Shown here in pieces: positions 1,202 to 17,668 of a DNA stretch of 28,364 nt. A model generated the notes under the pieces. The model was given only the letters and a program-made list of their open reading frames with translations. It ran no database searches and was not told the origin of the DNA. Each line of letters starts with the position of its first letter. Within the stretch, counting starts at the first letter, position 1. Where the stretch lies: the NCBI GenBank assembly GCA_030670715.1, contig DAOVBC010000001.1, positions 1-28,364 of the forward strand, given 5' to 3'. The stretch comes from Deltaproteobacteria bacterium. Lineage in GTDB: Bacteria; Desulfobacterota; Desulfobacteria; Desulfobacterales; SG8-13. The translations under genes were made by a program, and so were the position numbers.

Positions 1202-3100
1202 TTAACGGAACGAGGAATCGGTCAGTTTTTTTCCGAGCGTATCCAACACATCGGATTTATAAATCCGGTCATAAGCGGCTACGGAAAAAGCAGATTTCTT
1301 TTGTGCGGACATCAAAGATTTCAGATGAACGAAGCCTTTGGTGGTCAAACGGTATTTTTGGTTTGTATTTTGTTGGGCCCACCGGTTTTTTAGAAGAATA
1401 TTCATCACGTCTTTAAAACTTCGGGATAGTGTATACTCATAACCAAAGTTGCCGTACACCTTCTGCAAATGTGCTGGAATATCGTGAACCCCATCATTTT
1501 TTGACAACAACTTGAGCAGCTCTGTTTGGCTCAAACCCTCCGGTCGATCTTCCATGCACAGGATCATCATCACCCAAAGTGATTTGAGCGGATGTGTTTT
1601 TTGGGCTTCAGTGCACCACCGGCGCACCCTTTTTAACACCGCTTTCAGTTTTTGTCCGTCAATATTGTCGCCGGGGTAGGTTTTTACGATAAAAGACGCT
1701 GTGATGCCCAACAATCCGTAGGTCCGCTGTTTGATTTGTTCCAAATCCGGGTCATAATTGCGATAGTCATAGGCCAGCAAATACGGCTTGAATCCTTCAC
1801 GGCGATCCAATTTCAGCAGGGGGGAAGGCATTTTTTTCAAATTACCCCTGGCCTTTAGGAGCCTGTAGATGTCGGATCCGAACAAAGGGTAGGTATAGAG
1901 GTGGACATGAACGGTGGACTCACTGTTGTGGATGCAGGATATAGCCAGTGTGGCGGTGATGCCGACATCATCAATAGTTGATTCGGGGGAAAAGAGCTGG
2001 ACGCTCAACCTGGGTAGCACCTTTCCCTCTTTCAGCAGCTGTATGGATTGGTTGATTTCCGAAACCGTACAGCCCCTTCGCAGGCGTTTGGAAAGATCAT
2101 CGGTCAAGGCATCCGCCCCCATAAATGCCACTTTCACATTGGTTTTCCCCAGTTGTCTTGTCAGCTTTTTCGTCAGTCCCTTGGGTCGTAAAAAGCACGA
2201 ATACACGATCTCTCTTCCGACCTTTCGGTTTATTCGGTCTAAATAACCGCATATCCGCAGCGCCCATTCTTCGCTGATATTAAACGTATCGTCCCATACA
2301 TCCACAAACTGAATCTCAGGATTGTTTTTTAGCAGCTCAAGCATTTCATCGACAAAACCGTCGCTCTGGACCGCGCAGTGAAAATCTTTGCCGAACTGGC
2401 TGGCAATGGCGCAAAACAGGCATCCGCCCTGCGATTTTCGTGCCCAAATACAGGCTCTCTGGAGTGTAATCGCTACGGTTTTTTCCCCTAATCTCACATG
2501 GGCAAAGATGTTTTGTTCCGGCAGGGGGGCGGCGGAAAATGGGGTGGACATCAAGGCCTGTCTCTCCGGCAGCCAGAACACTAAGCTCGGAATGTCGAGC
2601 AGCGCATAAAGGAAATGTTTATCCCAGGGCCCGGTCATGGTGTTTCTTTCAAGGAGAGGCAGCAGCGAGAACAACGCGTTTTCAGCGGCCCCTCTCACAA
2701 TAAAATCCGGAGCGATGTCGACCACCTGATTCACGAAAATGGAATGCCGGTATCGCATTAAGTTTTTATAGTTATTGGATATTTCGTTTCCTCCCATAAT
2801 AATGGGAGCCGTATTGATCGTCCGTAGACACCATACAATTTTGGGCAATATAAAAAGATTGGCGGAATAGGGAGCGGAAACCAGCAGGACGTCGCATTCG
2901 GAAAAGCCGATATGTTTAAAAAAACGGCCGAGGAATTCATATCCCCTCAGCGTTGCGTCCTCCATGGAGAGAAAGATGCTGTCAGCGCCGATGGCTTCAC
3001 CACAAACGGGTTGATACCCCAATTCCGTTACGATGCGTTTCAGCGTTGAATATGCCAGACTGTTTTGCCTTGTGAGAGTGATGATGCCGACTTTTTTCAT
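1202..3100 (-). CDS. B12-binding-domain radical SAM protein with C-terminal winged-helix-like domain
   Basis: N-terminal cobalamin-binding-like motifs (APIIMGG, DFIVRGAAE). Cys cluster QRACIWARKSQGGCLFC. FVDVWDDTF and MGADA motifs match the class B 'DDxF' and 'GxES' positions. C-terminal SQTELL...NRWAQQ...KYRLTTKG resembles a wHTH. Confidence 0.8.
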   Translation of the reverse strand: MKKVGIITLTRQNSLAYSTLKRIVTELGYQPVCGEAIGADSIFLSMEDATLRGYEFLGRFFKHIGFSECDVLLVSAPYSANLFILPKIVWCLRTINTAPIIMGGNEISNNYKNLMRYRHSIFVNQVVDIAPDFIVRGAAENALFSLLPLLERNTMTGPWDKHFLYALLDIPSLVFWLPERQALMSTPFSAAPLPEQNIFAHVRLGEKTVAITLQRACIWARKSQGGCLFCAIASQFGKDFHCAVQSDGFVDEMLELLKNNPEIQFVDVWDDTFNISEEWALRICGYLDRINRKVGREIVYSCFLRPKGLTKKLTRQLGKTNVKVAFMGADALTDDLSKRLRRGCTVSEINQSIQLLKEGKVLPRLSVQLFSPESTIDDVGITATLAISCIHNSESTVHVHLYTYPLFGSDIYRLLKARGNLKKMPSPLLKLDRREGFKPYLLAYDYRNYDPDLEQIKQRTYGLLGITASFIVKTYPGDNIDGQKLKAVLKRVRRWCTEAQKTHPLKSLWVMMILCMEDRPEGLSQTELLKLLSKNDGVHDIPAHLQKVYGNFGYEYTLSRSFKDVMNILLKNRWAQQNTNQKYRLTTKGFVHLKSLMSAQKKSAFSVAAYDRIYKSDVLDTLGKKLTDSSFR

Positions 3101-3153
3101 CTTGTTCCGTTTAACGGTTTATTCTTTACGGAAAAGATACCCGGCGCGCGCTG

Positions 3154-3816
3154 CTATAGATCCGGGTCCACCAACCCGAGCTGTATCGCGAAATGGACCA
3201 GCTTGACGGGTGAGTCGATATCAAGCTTTTCCATTATCTTGGCCCGGTGAGATTTTACGGTGCTCATGCTGATATACAACATTTCTGCAATCACGCGTGT
3301 TGAGTGCCCTTCGGCGATTAACTGGAAAACCTCTCTTTCACGGTTGGAGAGCTGCTTGTACCTCTCGGTTCGGGGAGAGCTTTTCCGGGGTGATCGGTAG
3401 GCGTCCATGAGCACCTTGGATATGGAAGGACTTAGAAAGGTCTCGTTCTTCATAGCGGCATGAATGGCCTTGATAATGTCCCTGCCGCTCGATTCTTTGA
3501 GCAAATATCCCGATATCCCGGTTTCGAAGAGTTCATGGATATAATGCTCATGGGAATACATGGACAAAATAAGTATCTTCGTTTCCGGCAAATGCTTTCG
3601 AATTCTTTTAGCGGCCTCGATGCCGTTTAGGCGGGGCATGGCGATATCCAAGATCACCACATCGGGTTTCAGCTGTTTGGCTTTATCAACGGCATCCCGG
3701 CCGTTGGTGGCTTCTCCGATGACCTTCAGGTCGGGCTGTTCCTCCAGAAGGCGCGCCAGACCTTGCCGTACAATCGTATGGTCGTCCGCTAACATGATCC
3801 TGACGGGACTGTTCAC
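3154..3816 (-). CDS. NarL/LuxR-family response regulator
   Basis: REC domain (LADDH, D in VILDIAMP, GYLLKES) plus LuxR HTH (LSNREREVFQLIAEG...STVKSHRAKIMEKL). Start overlaps the kinase stop (GTGA). Confidence 0.95.
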   Translation of the reverse strand: MNSPVRIMLADDHTIVRQGLARLLEEQPDLKVIGEATNGRDAVDKAKQLKPDVVILDIAMPRLNGIEAAKRIRKHLPETKILILSMYSHEHYIHELFETGISGYLLKESSGRDIIKAIHAAMKNETFLSPSISKVLMDAYRSPRKSSPRTERYKQLSNREREVFQLIAEGHSTRVIAEMLYISMSTVKSHRAKIMEKLDIDSPVKLVHFAIQLGLVDPDL

Positions 3817-16342: not shown

Positions 16343-17035
16343 TTAAAAGAAGACTTCCGTGTATATGAAAGATCCCGGAAAACGCTCGTCTACCAGGTGC
16401 ATCACATCCCTGATCATCTCCTGCCGCCCGCAAAGATAAAAATCATACTGCGCGGCGGATAGATTCCGGGCAATATAATCGGTAACCCTTCCATGGAAAA
16501 AGCCGTGCGGCTGCAAGTCTTTGGCCGGTGTGTTCGATATGCAGGGAACATATTTATCAAAGATCGAGCGAAATTGATCCTGATAGTAAAGGTCTTCCAT
16601 ATAGCTTACCCCATGGAGAAGCATGAAACCGCCCACCCCTGAGCCGGCAATGGATACAAATGGTGCGATTCCGGTTCCGGTGGCAACAAAAATCGCCTGC
16701 CTGCGGGATGGCTTAAACGTAAAATATCCGTGGGGGCCGGTAAACTGAAACTGAGTACCCGGTTCGGCTGTTGCGAGGACGACGGAAAAAGTACCCTTTT
16801 CCACGAAACGCACGCACAGGGAAAGCGTCGGATCATCCGGGCCGGAGATGAGCGAGTAATATCGTTCAAAGCCGTCGTGGATGAAACGGATGGTCTGGCC
16901 TGCTGAAAATTCAAAGGGTGCGGGACGGCTTAGCTCTATTTCAAACGCTTTTTCAGATAGCCACCTGCGCTTGAGCAGCTCTGTCGTTTGGATAGCATCA
17001 TCCGTAACTGGAACCTGGGGTTGCTCGAAACTCAA
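16343..17035 (-). CDS. Ferredoxin-NADP reductase-type FAD/NAD(P) oxidoreductase
   Basis: FSAGQ, RYYSL, GPHG, ATGTGIAPF, YLCG and C-terminal aromatic EVFF. Probable TTG start at 17035 behind AGGAGGAG (ORF track start is 17068). Confidence 0.9.
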   Translation of the reverse strand: MSFEQPQVPVTDDAIQTTELLKRRWLSEKAFEIELSRPAPFEFSAGQTIRFIHDGFERYYSLISGPDDPTLSLCVRFVEKGTFSVVLATAEPGTQFQFTGPHGYFTFKPSRRQAIFVATGTGIAPFVSIAGSGVGGFMLLHGVSYMEDLYYQDQFRSIFDKYVPCISNTPAKDLQPHGFFHGRVTDYIARNLSAAQYDFYLCGRQEMIRDVMHLVDERFPGSFIYTEVFF

Positions 17036-17158
17036 AGGGTCGCTCCTCCTGAACAGAGAAAAAATCAAGGTAGCTTACGCGCATCGAGTGTTACAATTTT
17101 TAGTATATCGAAAAATCTTTTTCAAGACATAGTTTTACGCGGGTTTCTCCCCGGCACA

Positions 17159-17668
17159 TCATATTTTCTGGTCCCTGATTCCAGAGTATACCGCTTTGCA
17201 GATACCGGATACGCCGCCTTTTAAACCGTCCGGATTCTTAAATCCTTCCGTCCCTTTAAGGCTTTCGAGATATGCCTGCGCGTCAATCAGGTTCGGGGAT
17301 CCGTTGTCGGAACCGGGGTTCGGTTTTATTTTGAACAGCCACCCCTGATCGTAAGGAGACTTTAAAACAAGGTCGACGTCTTGTTTGACCTGATCATTAA
17401 AGTGGATAACACCCTTAACAGGAGAATTAAGATACAAAATCTTCCCGGTAATAGCAAATATCACGGCCTGATCTTGATCGACACGCTGTCCTTCCGAAAC
17501 AAGCCAGTCAAGACCATTCAGCCCGCCCATCAGCACCAGGGCCGGTTCGGTCAACCCTGCCAGAAGTTCCCGATCCATCGCTTTTGCCCAAATTCCCTGT
17601 GATGCATCATAGTTACGATCTTCCGGCACTTCCACCTGTTTACCCAGAAACTTAAGAATAGTCGCCAT
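17159..17668 (-). CDS. Glycine cleavage H-protein-like (lipoyl-domain fold) protein with C-terminal extension
   Basis: YDASQGIWA, GLTE, SPVKG and SPYDQGWLFKI match GcvH. AGGAG RBS before ATG 17668. The putative lipoyl-Lys spacing is atypical. Confidence 0.8.
   Translation of the reverse strand: MATILKFLGKQVEVPEDRNYDASQGIWAKAMDRELLAGLTEPALVLMGGLNGLDWLVSEGQRVDQDQAVIFAITGKILYLNSPVKGVIHFNDQVKQDVDLVLKSPYDQGWLFKIKPNPGSDNGSPNLIDAQAYLESLKGTEGFKNPDGLKGGVSGICKAVYSGIRDQKI

Follow-up and report, generated by a model that had tools for sequence, protein, structure and literature searches.

The window analyzed here, 28,364 nucleotides (nt) long, is one whole contig (C169) of a metagenome-assembled genome (MAG) from the Desulfobacterales, the assembly of which comprised 2.28 Mb in 320 contigs and was 70.6% complete. 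Our subject was the group of genes that fills about 16.5 kb at positions 1202-17707, where a sequence-only reading of the DNA had listed a B12 radical SAM protein, an MtrH-like methyltransferase, a COG0523 GTPase, DUF1638, CobO, flavin reductases, a selenoprotein, and a sensor system. All of these were confirmed by the listing of open reading frames (ORFs) and by scans with Pfam and NCBIfam profiles, the first as a radical-SAM-like protein (Table 1). In one minus-strand run, genes for a GcvH-related protein, an FNR/Fre-like reductase, a Rossmann/AF_1314_C protein, CobO, and DUF1638 were followed, across a gap of 446 nt, by genes for a TSCPD-phosphoesterase fusion protein (TSCPD-PE), a thioredoxin-like selenoprotein, and an SMC-head ATPase. 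A second minus-strand run encoded MtrH, two V4R-like proteins (V4Ra and V4Rb), a PAS-PAS-GAF kinase, a NarL-type regulator, and a radical-SAM-like protein, and the plus strand carried a GltD-like Fe-S flavoprotein gene followed by the COG0523 GTPase gene.

Table 1. Features of the cluster and its borders, in window coordinates
Feature	Position	Strand	Basis or remark
Miniature inverted-repeat transposable element (MITE), copy A	898..1111	.	214 nt, nested inverted repeats; at synteny break after radical-SAM-like gene
Radical-SAM-like protein, putative B12-type domain	1202..3100	-	last gene of sensor operon; C-terminal helical/winged-helix-like tail
NarL/LuxR-type response regulator	3154..3816	-	Pfam; 74-84% identical in relatives
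Soluble PAS-PAS-GAF-HisKA_3 histidine kinase	3813..6146	-	Pfam; synteny
V4R-like protein b (V4Rb), 200 aa	6037..6639	-	weak C-terminal V4R match; 68-80% identical in relatives
V4R-domain protein a (V4Ra), 176 aa	6681..7211	-	V4R E 9.5e-6; synteny
Terminator-like GC hairpin and T run	7318..7337	-	between MtrH and V4Ra; consensus match only
MtrH-family methyltransferase	7389..8372	-	E 8e-46; PF02007 157 bits over 2-289 of 299
Predicted operator copy 1, ATCGTCTAAAGGACGAT	8505..8521	.	divergent MtrH/GltD promoter region
GltD/NfnB-like NAD(P)H flavoprotein, N-terminal NuoF-type and DPD-type Fe-S domains	8633..10591	+	Pfam/NCBIfam
COG0523 GTPase metallochaperone	10601..11566	+	CxCC motif (GCICCT); starts 10 nt after GltD-like gene
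SMC-head-only ABC-type ATPase, 326 aa	11576..12556	-	invariant C-terminal Y-K/Q-C-C
Thioredoxin-like selenoprotein, 98 aa	12558..12854	-	selenocysteine (Sec) TGA 12804-12806, U-x-A-C motif
TSCPD (4-Cys) domain fused to degenerate calcineurin-like phosphoesterase fold (TSCPD-PE)	12868..13815	-	profiles, structure model
Predicted operator copy 2, ATCGTCCAATAGTTGAT	14166..14182	.	351 nt upstream of TSCPD-PE start
DUF1638 protein	14261..15034	-	PF07796 118.8 bits vs gathering 27, E 3e-34
CobA/CobO-type ATP:corrinoid adenosyltransferase	15114..15641	-	215 bits
Protein with N-terminal Rossmann domain and AF_1314_C domain	15653..16297	-	profiles
FNR/Fre-like two-domain flavin reductase	16343..17068	-	profiles
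GcvH-related protein	17159..17668	-	NF045810, 244 bits
MITE copy B	17750..17963	.	214 nt; inverted relative to copy A

With TSCPD-PE as the anchor (572 homologues), 75 related loci were fetched, and neighboring genes were counted over 73 of them by ORF clustering and Pfam labels. The loci came mostly from Desulfobacterales MAGs, and the cultured Desulfofundulus australicus, D. thermosubterraneus, and D. thermobenzoicus were also represented. The Sec-thioredoxin gene with its TGA was present at 69 of the 73 loci and the SMC-head ATPase at 60 (linked 60/70), with the three genes adjacent to one another across loci; this trio is the constant core of the cluster. Counts for the other neighbors were 51 for COG0523, 28 for MtaA/URO-D methyltransferases, 24 for MtrH, 22 each for corrinoid proteins and CobO, 16-22 for the V4R, kinase, and regulator genes, 19 each for DUF1638 and a HUIPC-like redoxin, 18 for a CxxCxxCC protein, 15 for the FNR-like reductase, 14 for RACo, 12 for the AF_1314-like protein, and 11 for the GltD-like protein. 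At 11-22 of 73 loci, CobO, FNR, GltD, and DUF1638 are variable members. DUF2284, MIP, BtuF-like, CbiM/CbiQO, thioredoxin-reductase-like (TrxR-like), and DsbD-like genes were rarer neighbors. A gene of the methyltransferase core lay within 10 kb in 33 of the 45 loci that spanned at least 15 kb, and genes of the window outside 1202-17707 were never seen to co-occur at related loci.

The order of the genes was conserved as well. In one relative (G107) it ran FNR-CobO-DUF1638-TSCPD-SelTrx-SMC-COG0523-GltD-MtrH-V4Ra-V4Rb, two others (G085 and G003) had variant orders of the same genes, and the order of nearly all members was kept in other families of the same taxonomic order and partly in Bacillota. 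Desulfofundulus holds the cluster in rearranged form, and in D. australicus the trio was embedded among corrinoid proteins, URO-D genes, COG0523, CobO, RACo, and MtrH. Among 120 sampled genomes of the order, the DUF1638 orthologue was found in 6 (in other families with almost the whole window order around it), the radical-SAM-like gene in 4, TSCPD-PE in 8, and V4Rb in 9; TSCPD-PE and V4Rb shared 7 genomes, against about 0.6 expected by chance, so that the phylogenetic profiling proposed as a check in the sequence-only reading agrees with the genes belonging together. The distribution of the cluster is patchy, because none of its members occurs in the one further genome of this family. In the literature, TSCPD, AAA ATPase, and GTP-binding genes were reported in D. 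kuznetsovii TPOSR to replace mtaB/mtaC in a methyltransferase operon that does not serve growth on methanol (PMC10907483). Our literature search found the module described nowhere else, apart from listings of selenoprotein families; this passing mention was also the only result for TSCPD with corrinoid, and no paper was returned for MtrH combined with V4R.

Each member of the trio had unusual features. The model of TSCPD-PE (predicted local distance difference test, pLDDT, 81) joined a 4-Cys N-terminal domain, faintly IscU/NifU-like, to a C-terminal domain with a calcineurin-like phosphoesterase fold, nearest in predicted structure to SapH, Vps29, and YfcE. The metal motifs DxH, GDxxDR, GNHD/E, and GH were absent, the conserved positions reading GLEG, GNLTG, and GE(T/N)DW, and because these metal-binding motifs are degenerate, the phosphoesterase part is, to judge by its residues, a pseudo-enzyme scaffold. 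The selenoprotein kept its TGA in 69/69 homologous loci within an F-N/R/K-Q-U-x-A-C-V motif; the conserved in-frame TGA, the conserved flanks on both sides, and a tRNA-Sec in the genome (contig C253) identify it as a bacterial selenoprotein, and it was 72-87% identical across phyla. It scored 46 bits against the HUIPC family (NF047660), the cut-off of which is 105, and is related to that family yet outside it. The HUIPC thioredoxin-like selenoproteins are similar in length (about 90-100 aa), in their thioredoxin fold, and in having UxxC at the end of strand 1, whereas the selenoprotein of the window has its own F-N/R-Q-U-x-A-C-V motif, always contains Sec, and is encoded in every case between the genes for TSCPD-PE and the SMC-head ATPase. 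In the ATPase, the N- and C-terminal head halves matched SMC at 188 bits and kept Walker A, LSGGEK, and Walker B; it has no coiled coil and so departs from SMC proteins, in which a hinge and a long coiled coil join the heads. When the ATPase and TSCPD-PE were modeled as a complex, the best score was 0.28, below the mark of 0.32, and this counts neither for nor against an interaction.

Further genes and repeats were seen beside the trio. In D. australicus (L068, 8005-9994), four or five small thioredoxin-like genes (HUIPC-like, Trx_3, and MJ0307-like) lay directly upstream of TSCPD-PE, and related Bacillota loci carried an MIP channel and a BtuF-like gene. A periodic palindromic insert was found in the window at 13917-14008, between operator copy 2 and the start of TSCPD-PE; it may explain why the operator is 351 nt upstream here and 75-170 nt upstream in most relatives.

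The operator itself emerged from an alignment of the divergent MtrH/GltD region of eight genomes as a 17-bp palindrome, ATCGTCyAAwAGwyGAT, beside a TTGACA box. In the whole 2.28-Mb genome, the exact consensus occurred at 8505-8521 and 14166-14182 only, and one-mismatch matches elsewhere were at the level of shuffled sequence. The non-Bacillota loci of the relatives (0.99 Mb) held 70 sites, 62 of them at stereotyped positions: upstream of TSCPD-PE in 39/60 relatives, of MtrH in 18/19, and of FNR in 5/15, and also 3' of the radical-SAM-like gene, just upstream of the adjoining methyltransferase genes. Bacillota loci had neither the operator nor the V4R two-component unit, and an HTH_3 regulator was found there instead. 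The NarL-type regulator of the cluster is a candidate for binding the operator. The sequence-only reading had staked itself on members that are not scattered in relatives and are regulated together; conserved order and an operator common to the trio and the MtrH/GltD units upheld this, but not for the CobO operon of this genome, which is taken up below. Its remark that no cobalamin riboswitch was recognizable also held, as no Rfam family, the cobalamin riboswitch included, matched positions 1-19000 even at E<=1.

The sensor genes were a stable unit, V4Rb being always paired with V4Ra and the kinase in relatives. V4Ra and V4Rb share with the V4R domains of XylR/DmpR/MopR the V4R fold signature with C-terminal Cys residues, but they are standalone tandem proteins beside a soluble histidine kinase and are not fused to a σ54 activator. 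An N-terminal extension of V4Ra by read-through of a TGA was considered and dropped, as no profile supports it. The radical-SAM-like protein at the end of the sensor operon had weak Pfam matches below the cut-off (Radical_SAM, E 7e-4; B12-binding, E 4.5e-3), and PF04055 and/or PF02310 were present on many of its homologues. Its family has at least 193 members and was seemingly rare because the gene lies beyond the 10-kb flanks of the fetched loci. It carries the motif C217-X9-C227-X2-C230 (CX9CX2C), invariant in 14/14 homologues, in place of the CX3CX2C of class B radical SAM enzymes. A sequence search of the PDB gave chance matches only. Since its structure model was poor (pLDDT 61), the ranking of fold matches alone was used: the best 16 Foldseek matches were all of class-B radical SAM type and nearly all cobalamin-dependent (TM score about 0.3), with TsrM, AprD4, OxsB, MgmA, CysS, and TokK at the top. 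By weak profile matches and fold ranking, the protein may resemble class B enzymes such as TsrM, OxsB, TokK, and CysS in placing an N-terminal Rossmann-like B12-type domain before a radical-SAM barrel, and it differs from them in the cysteine motif, in an extra C-terminal helical/wHTH-like region, and in matching no curated family above the cut-off.

Evidence that the cluster continues beyond the window came from the relatives. In three of them, V4Ra-V4Rb-kinase-regulator-rSAM was followed by URO-D1, a corrinoid protein, RACo, DUF2284, and URO-D2, and then by a Cys paralogue of the selenoprotein, a 98-aa ORF, Trx_3, a second COG0523, and a TrxR-like gene. The methyltransferases of the cluster are MtaA/CmuA-like, and the corrinoid protein is MtbC-like. 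In the present MAG, contig C2 (11,285 bp) carried RACo (cut by the contig end), DUF2284, URO-D2, the Cys paralogue, Trx_3, the second COG0523 (COG0523b), and TrxR in the order of the relatives, collinear at 53-84% identity with their segment after the radical-SAM-like gene. Another thioredoxin-reductase-like gene lies within the window at 3-863 (minus strand), just past MITE A, and runs off the contig end. At 26-30% identity to the TrxR that closes the cluster in relatives and to the one on C2, it was rejected as the orthologue of the former (27%); the copy on C2 is that orthologue (54%).

The MtrH protein had among its nearest solved relatives the methylcorrinoid:tetrahydrofolate (THF) methyltransferase of D. 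hafniense (6sj8, E 2e-31). It scored below the cut-off of the NCBIfam subfamily (250 vs 287); on the evidence of its profile and solved relatives, it is likely a methylcorrinoid:THF methyltransferase. The GltD-like protein was about 70% identical in 11 loci. The COG0523 protein had CobW N- and C-terminal domains, Walker A (GSGKTT), and GCICCT, as expected of its family, and fell short of the equivalog cut-offs for CobW, ZigA, and YeiR. A sequence search of the PDB gave no matches for DUF1638 or the AF_1314-like protein. For DUF1638, a connection to the trio was seen in a metagenomic protein (P0083, 543 aa, one ORF) in which DUF1638 (70% identical to that of the window) and TSCPD-PE (60%) are fused with 9 residues between them; the fusion is confined to one metagenomic lineage, a cluster of 18 member sequences. 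Mutants in DUF1638 were reported to require methionine and to show cofitness with a RamA-like activase and a split B12 methionine synthase (Price et al. 2018, PMC5764234). As in that system of Phaeobacter inhibens, where DUF1638 stands beside the parts of a corrinoid-binding methyltransferase and is needed for function, DUF1638 accompanies methyl-transfer genes here; it differs in adjoining TSCPD-PE (to which it is fused in one lineage) and in a system of catabolic type (MtrH/MtaA-like) rather than a methionine synthase.

The findings in this study suggested that 1202-17707 is probably one half, with sensing and accessory functions, of a corrinoid methyltransferase supercluster that spans about 30 kb and is conserved in sulfate reducers. 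A link to corrinoid-dependent methyl transfer was supported by association, as the genes travel together, the cluster continues into methyltransferases, and the operator is shared. To this extent the earlier idea of a toolkit serving methyl transfer was sustained, but the stretch is half of a larger cluster, the CobO, FNR, GltD, and DUF1638 genes on which that toolkit relied are variable, and the core is formed by the trio, of which the earlier list named the selenoprotein alone. Corrinoid methyltransferases feed methyl groups from methoxylated aromatics, methylamines, methanol, methyl sulfides, and halomethanes into the Wood-Ljungdahl pathway of anaerobes. Known systems (Mta of D. kuznetsovii, Mtg of Desulfitobacterium, the Odm/Mto O-demethylases, and the mec dichloromethane cassette) have three components and an ATP-dependent activase, and the full cluster of the relatives is similar to them in its MtrH-family methylcorrinoid:THF transferase, MtaA/CmuA-like transferases, MtbC-like corrinoid protein, RACo, and kinase/regulator pair. 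To our knowledge, none of those systems has been described with the trio, the V4R pair, or the CX9CX2C radical-SAM-like gene, and the mec sensor is of PocR type, whereas that of the window is V4R.

In such a supercluster, the V4R pair, the soluble kinase, and the NarL-type regulator would act through the 17-bp operator in response to a small hydrophobic ligand, which might be the methyl donor. MtrH would transfer methyl groups from the corrinoid protein to THF, and the FNR/Fre-like reductase, CobO, the AF_1314-like protein, and DUF1638 could keep the corrinoid supplied and usable. COG0523 may load a metal center, which could be Co or the Zn of the MtaA-like enzymes. The three trio proteins, namely the Sec-thioredoxin, the TSCPD scaffold with its four Cys residues, and the SMC-head ATPase with its CC tail, may work as an ATP-using thiol/selenol relay. 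This relay would draw on NAD(P)H reductases of the GltD-like or TrxR-like kind, and its task would be to keep up or repair those metal or corrinoid centers of the methyltransferases that are sensitive to redox changes. Oxidation of Co(I) is the weak point of corrinoid methyltransferases, and its repair is so far known by RACo/RamA. We put forward, tentatively and with less than even confidence, that the trio is an unrecognized selenium-dependent, ATP-using machine which, with COG0523 and DUF1638, reactivates or repairs the Co or Zn centers of corrinoid methyltransferases, or dealkylates mis-alkylated corrinoids, as a second route beside RACo/RamA that is V4R-switched via the operator.

Several observations weigh against the supercluster and the role of the trio in it. 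No corrinoid protein, MtaA-like methyltransferase, or RACo lies inside the window, and orthologues of URO-D1 and of the corrinoid protein were not found in the 70.6%-complete assembly, in which another corrinoid protein and another URO-D occur on contig C21. That the stretch at 1202-17707 and C2 may be halves of one cluster is based on the gene order of the relatives rather than on a physical link between the two contigs. In this genome, no operator was found upstream of the GcvH-related/FNR/CobO/DUF1638 operon. Domain content and neighborhood are the basis on which roles were proposed for the trio, COG0523, the GltD-like and AF_1314-like proteins, and the V4R ligand. Finally, the full cluster already includes RACo, and the need for a second reactivation device is therefore not obvious.

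A different role for the same genes would be a catalytic one, in which the trio and the extra thioredoxin, TrxR, and COG0523 genes belong to a pathway that handles a methylated compound of sulfur, selenium, or a metalloid, or else a disulfide, for example dimethyl disulfide. Reducing or carrying the substrate or its product would then fall to the selenolate/thiolate proteins, and methyl transfer to MtrH and the MtaA-like enzymes (which have thiol-methylating relatives). Such a pathway would account for the invariance of Sec at 69/69 loci, for the HUIPC-like and Trx_3 paralogues, the Cys paralogue of the selenoprotein, and the TrxR-like and DsbD-like genes of the same clusters, for methyltransferases from the MtaA/CmuA-like family, the characterized members of which methylate a thiol, and for the MIP channel in the Bacillota version. 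It would also be consistent with the D. kuznetsovii strain, which does not use its operon variant for methanol (PMC10907483). However, no substrate-specific enzyme was identified and nothing ties the trio to a small-molecule substrate, while the V4R sensors and the DUF1638 fusion fit either role; we regard a catalytic pathway as a serious but unlikely alternative.

The sequence-only reading itself had pictured a toolkit for corrinoid reduction, repair, and remodeling, with the FNR-like or GltD-like enzyme as reductant; in this version, CobO would be at the center of corrinoid salvage, adenosylation, and remodeling, and that enzyme would supply cob(I)alamin. CobO passed curated cut-offs (TIGR00708, 189.7 vs 167.75; NF004637, 205 vs 185), the adjacency FNR-CobO-DUF1638 recurred (for example, at L004, L011, L012, and L021), and CbiM/CbiQO, BtuF-like, and CbiZ genes occurred in the clusters of some relatives. 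In Salmonella, Fre/Fpr-type reductases support CobA. The window is similar to the CobA of Salmonella enterica with Fpr/FldA or Fre in that CobO is encoded two genes downstream of an FNR/Fre-type reductase; it differs in having no flavodoxin gene, in a pairing that varies across relatives, and in a context of methyl transfer rather than adenosylcobalamin (AdoCbl) enzymes. Against a CobO-centered toolkit, CobO was found at 22/73 loci, FNR at 15/73, and GltD at 11/73, with CobO often lacking FNR, no nucleotide-loop or lower-ligand genes lie within the window, and the operator here marks the trio and MtrH/GltD units and not the CobO operon. This toolkit is improbable as the function of the whole. 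CbiC was not found in the assembly, which is 70.6% complete and does contain CobS (on C118). A Sec extension of the GcvH-related protein through the TGA at 17159 was rejected, as homologues stop there with other stop codons and have no conserved downstream peptide.

The two MITE copies, which the sequence-only reading had taken as the borders of an island, are 93% complementary and belong to a family that occupies about 60 places in the assembly of 2.28 Mb, of which 22 are contig ends. With a copy roughly every 38 kb, finding two in a window of 28 kb is nothing out of the ordinary. The MITE was nearly absent from relatives, with one weak partial match (70% over 118 nt) among 89 related loci, although gene order was kept there. 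Because of its many genomic places and its near absence from the related loci, the pair does not define the unit; it is a lineage-specific, high-copy repeat, and its role as a border has to be given up. Gene order nevertheless leaves that of the relatives exactly at MITE A, where they have URO-D1, the corrinoid protein, and RACo, or MtrH, after the radical-SAM-like gene, and a repeat-associated rearrangement at this point is plausible. An inversion between the two inverted copies would not restore the ancestral order, as neither flank has URO-D1 or the corrinoid protein. It is highly improbable that unrelated operons were moved or put together here by the flanking repeats, which would make the stretch a mobile or chance mosaic: inverted copies at both ends, patchiness (6-9 of 120 genomes of the order and none in the sole other same-family genome), and the break at MITE A would agree with it, but the operator, the DUF1638::TSCPD-PE fusion, and the order of the genes all show that the genes are functionally linked, independently of a repeat that is essentially absent from the relatives, and profile scans found no transposase or integrase in the stretch.

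The MITE family was also a main cause of the fragmentation of this MAG. An unrelated element of about 275 nt at 22116-22390, with three nested inverted-repeat pairs, lies between the hybrid kinase and shikimate dehydrogenase genes and may be another MITE-like family. Farther along, at 23457-28362, are a CCG-domain (HdrB/HmcF-like) fragment, a response regulator, MetF, MetV (DUF5981), MvhD, and HdrA. This methylene-THF reductase/Hdr-type set could accept methyl-THF from MtrH, and it does not travel with the cluster in relatives.

Our study defined a conserved set of accessory genes in which a selenoprotein is obligatory and which includes an SMC-derived ATPase; its distribution among marine and subsurface sulfate reducers is patchy. 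The operator, the sensor pair, and the regulator make up a testable regulon, and DUF1638 gains a genomic context. Cultured carriers of the cluster exist in Desulfofundulus spp.

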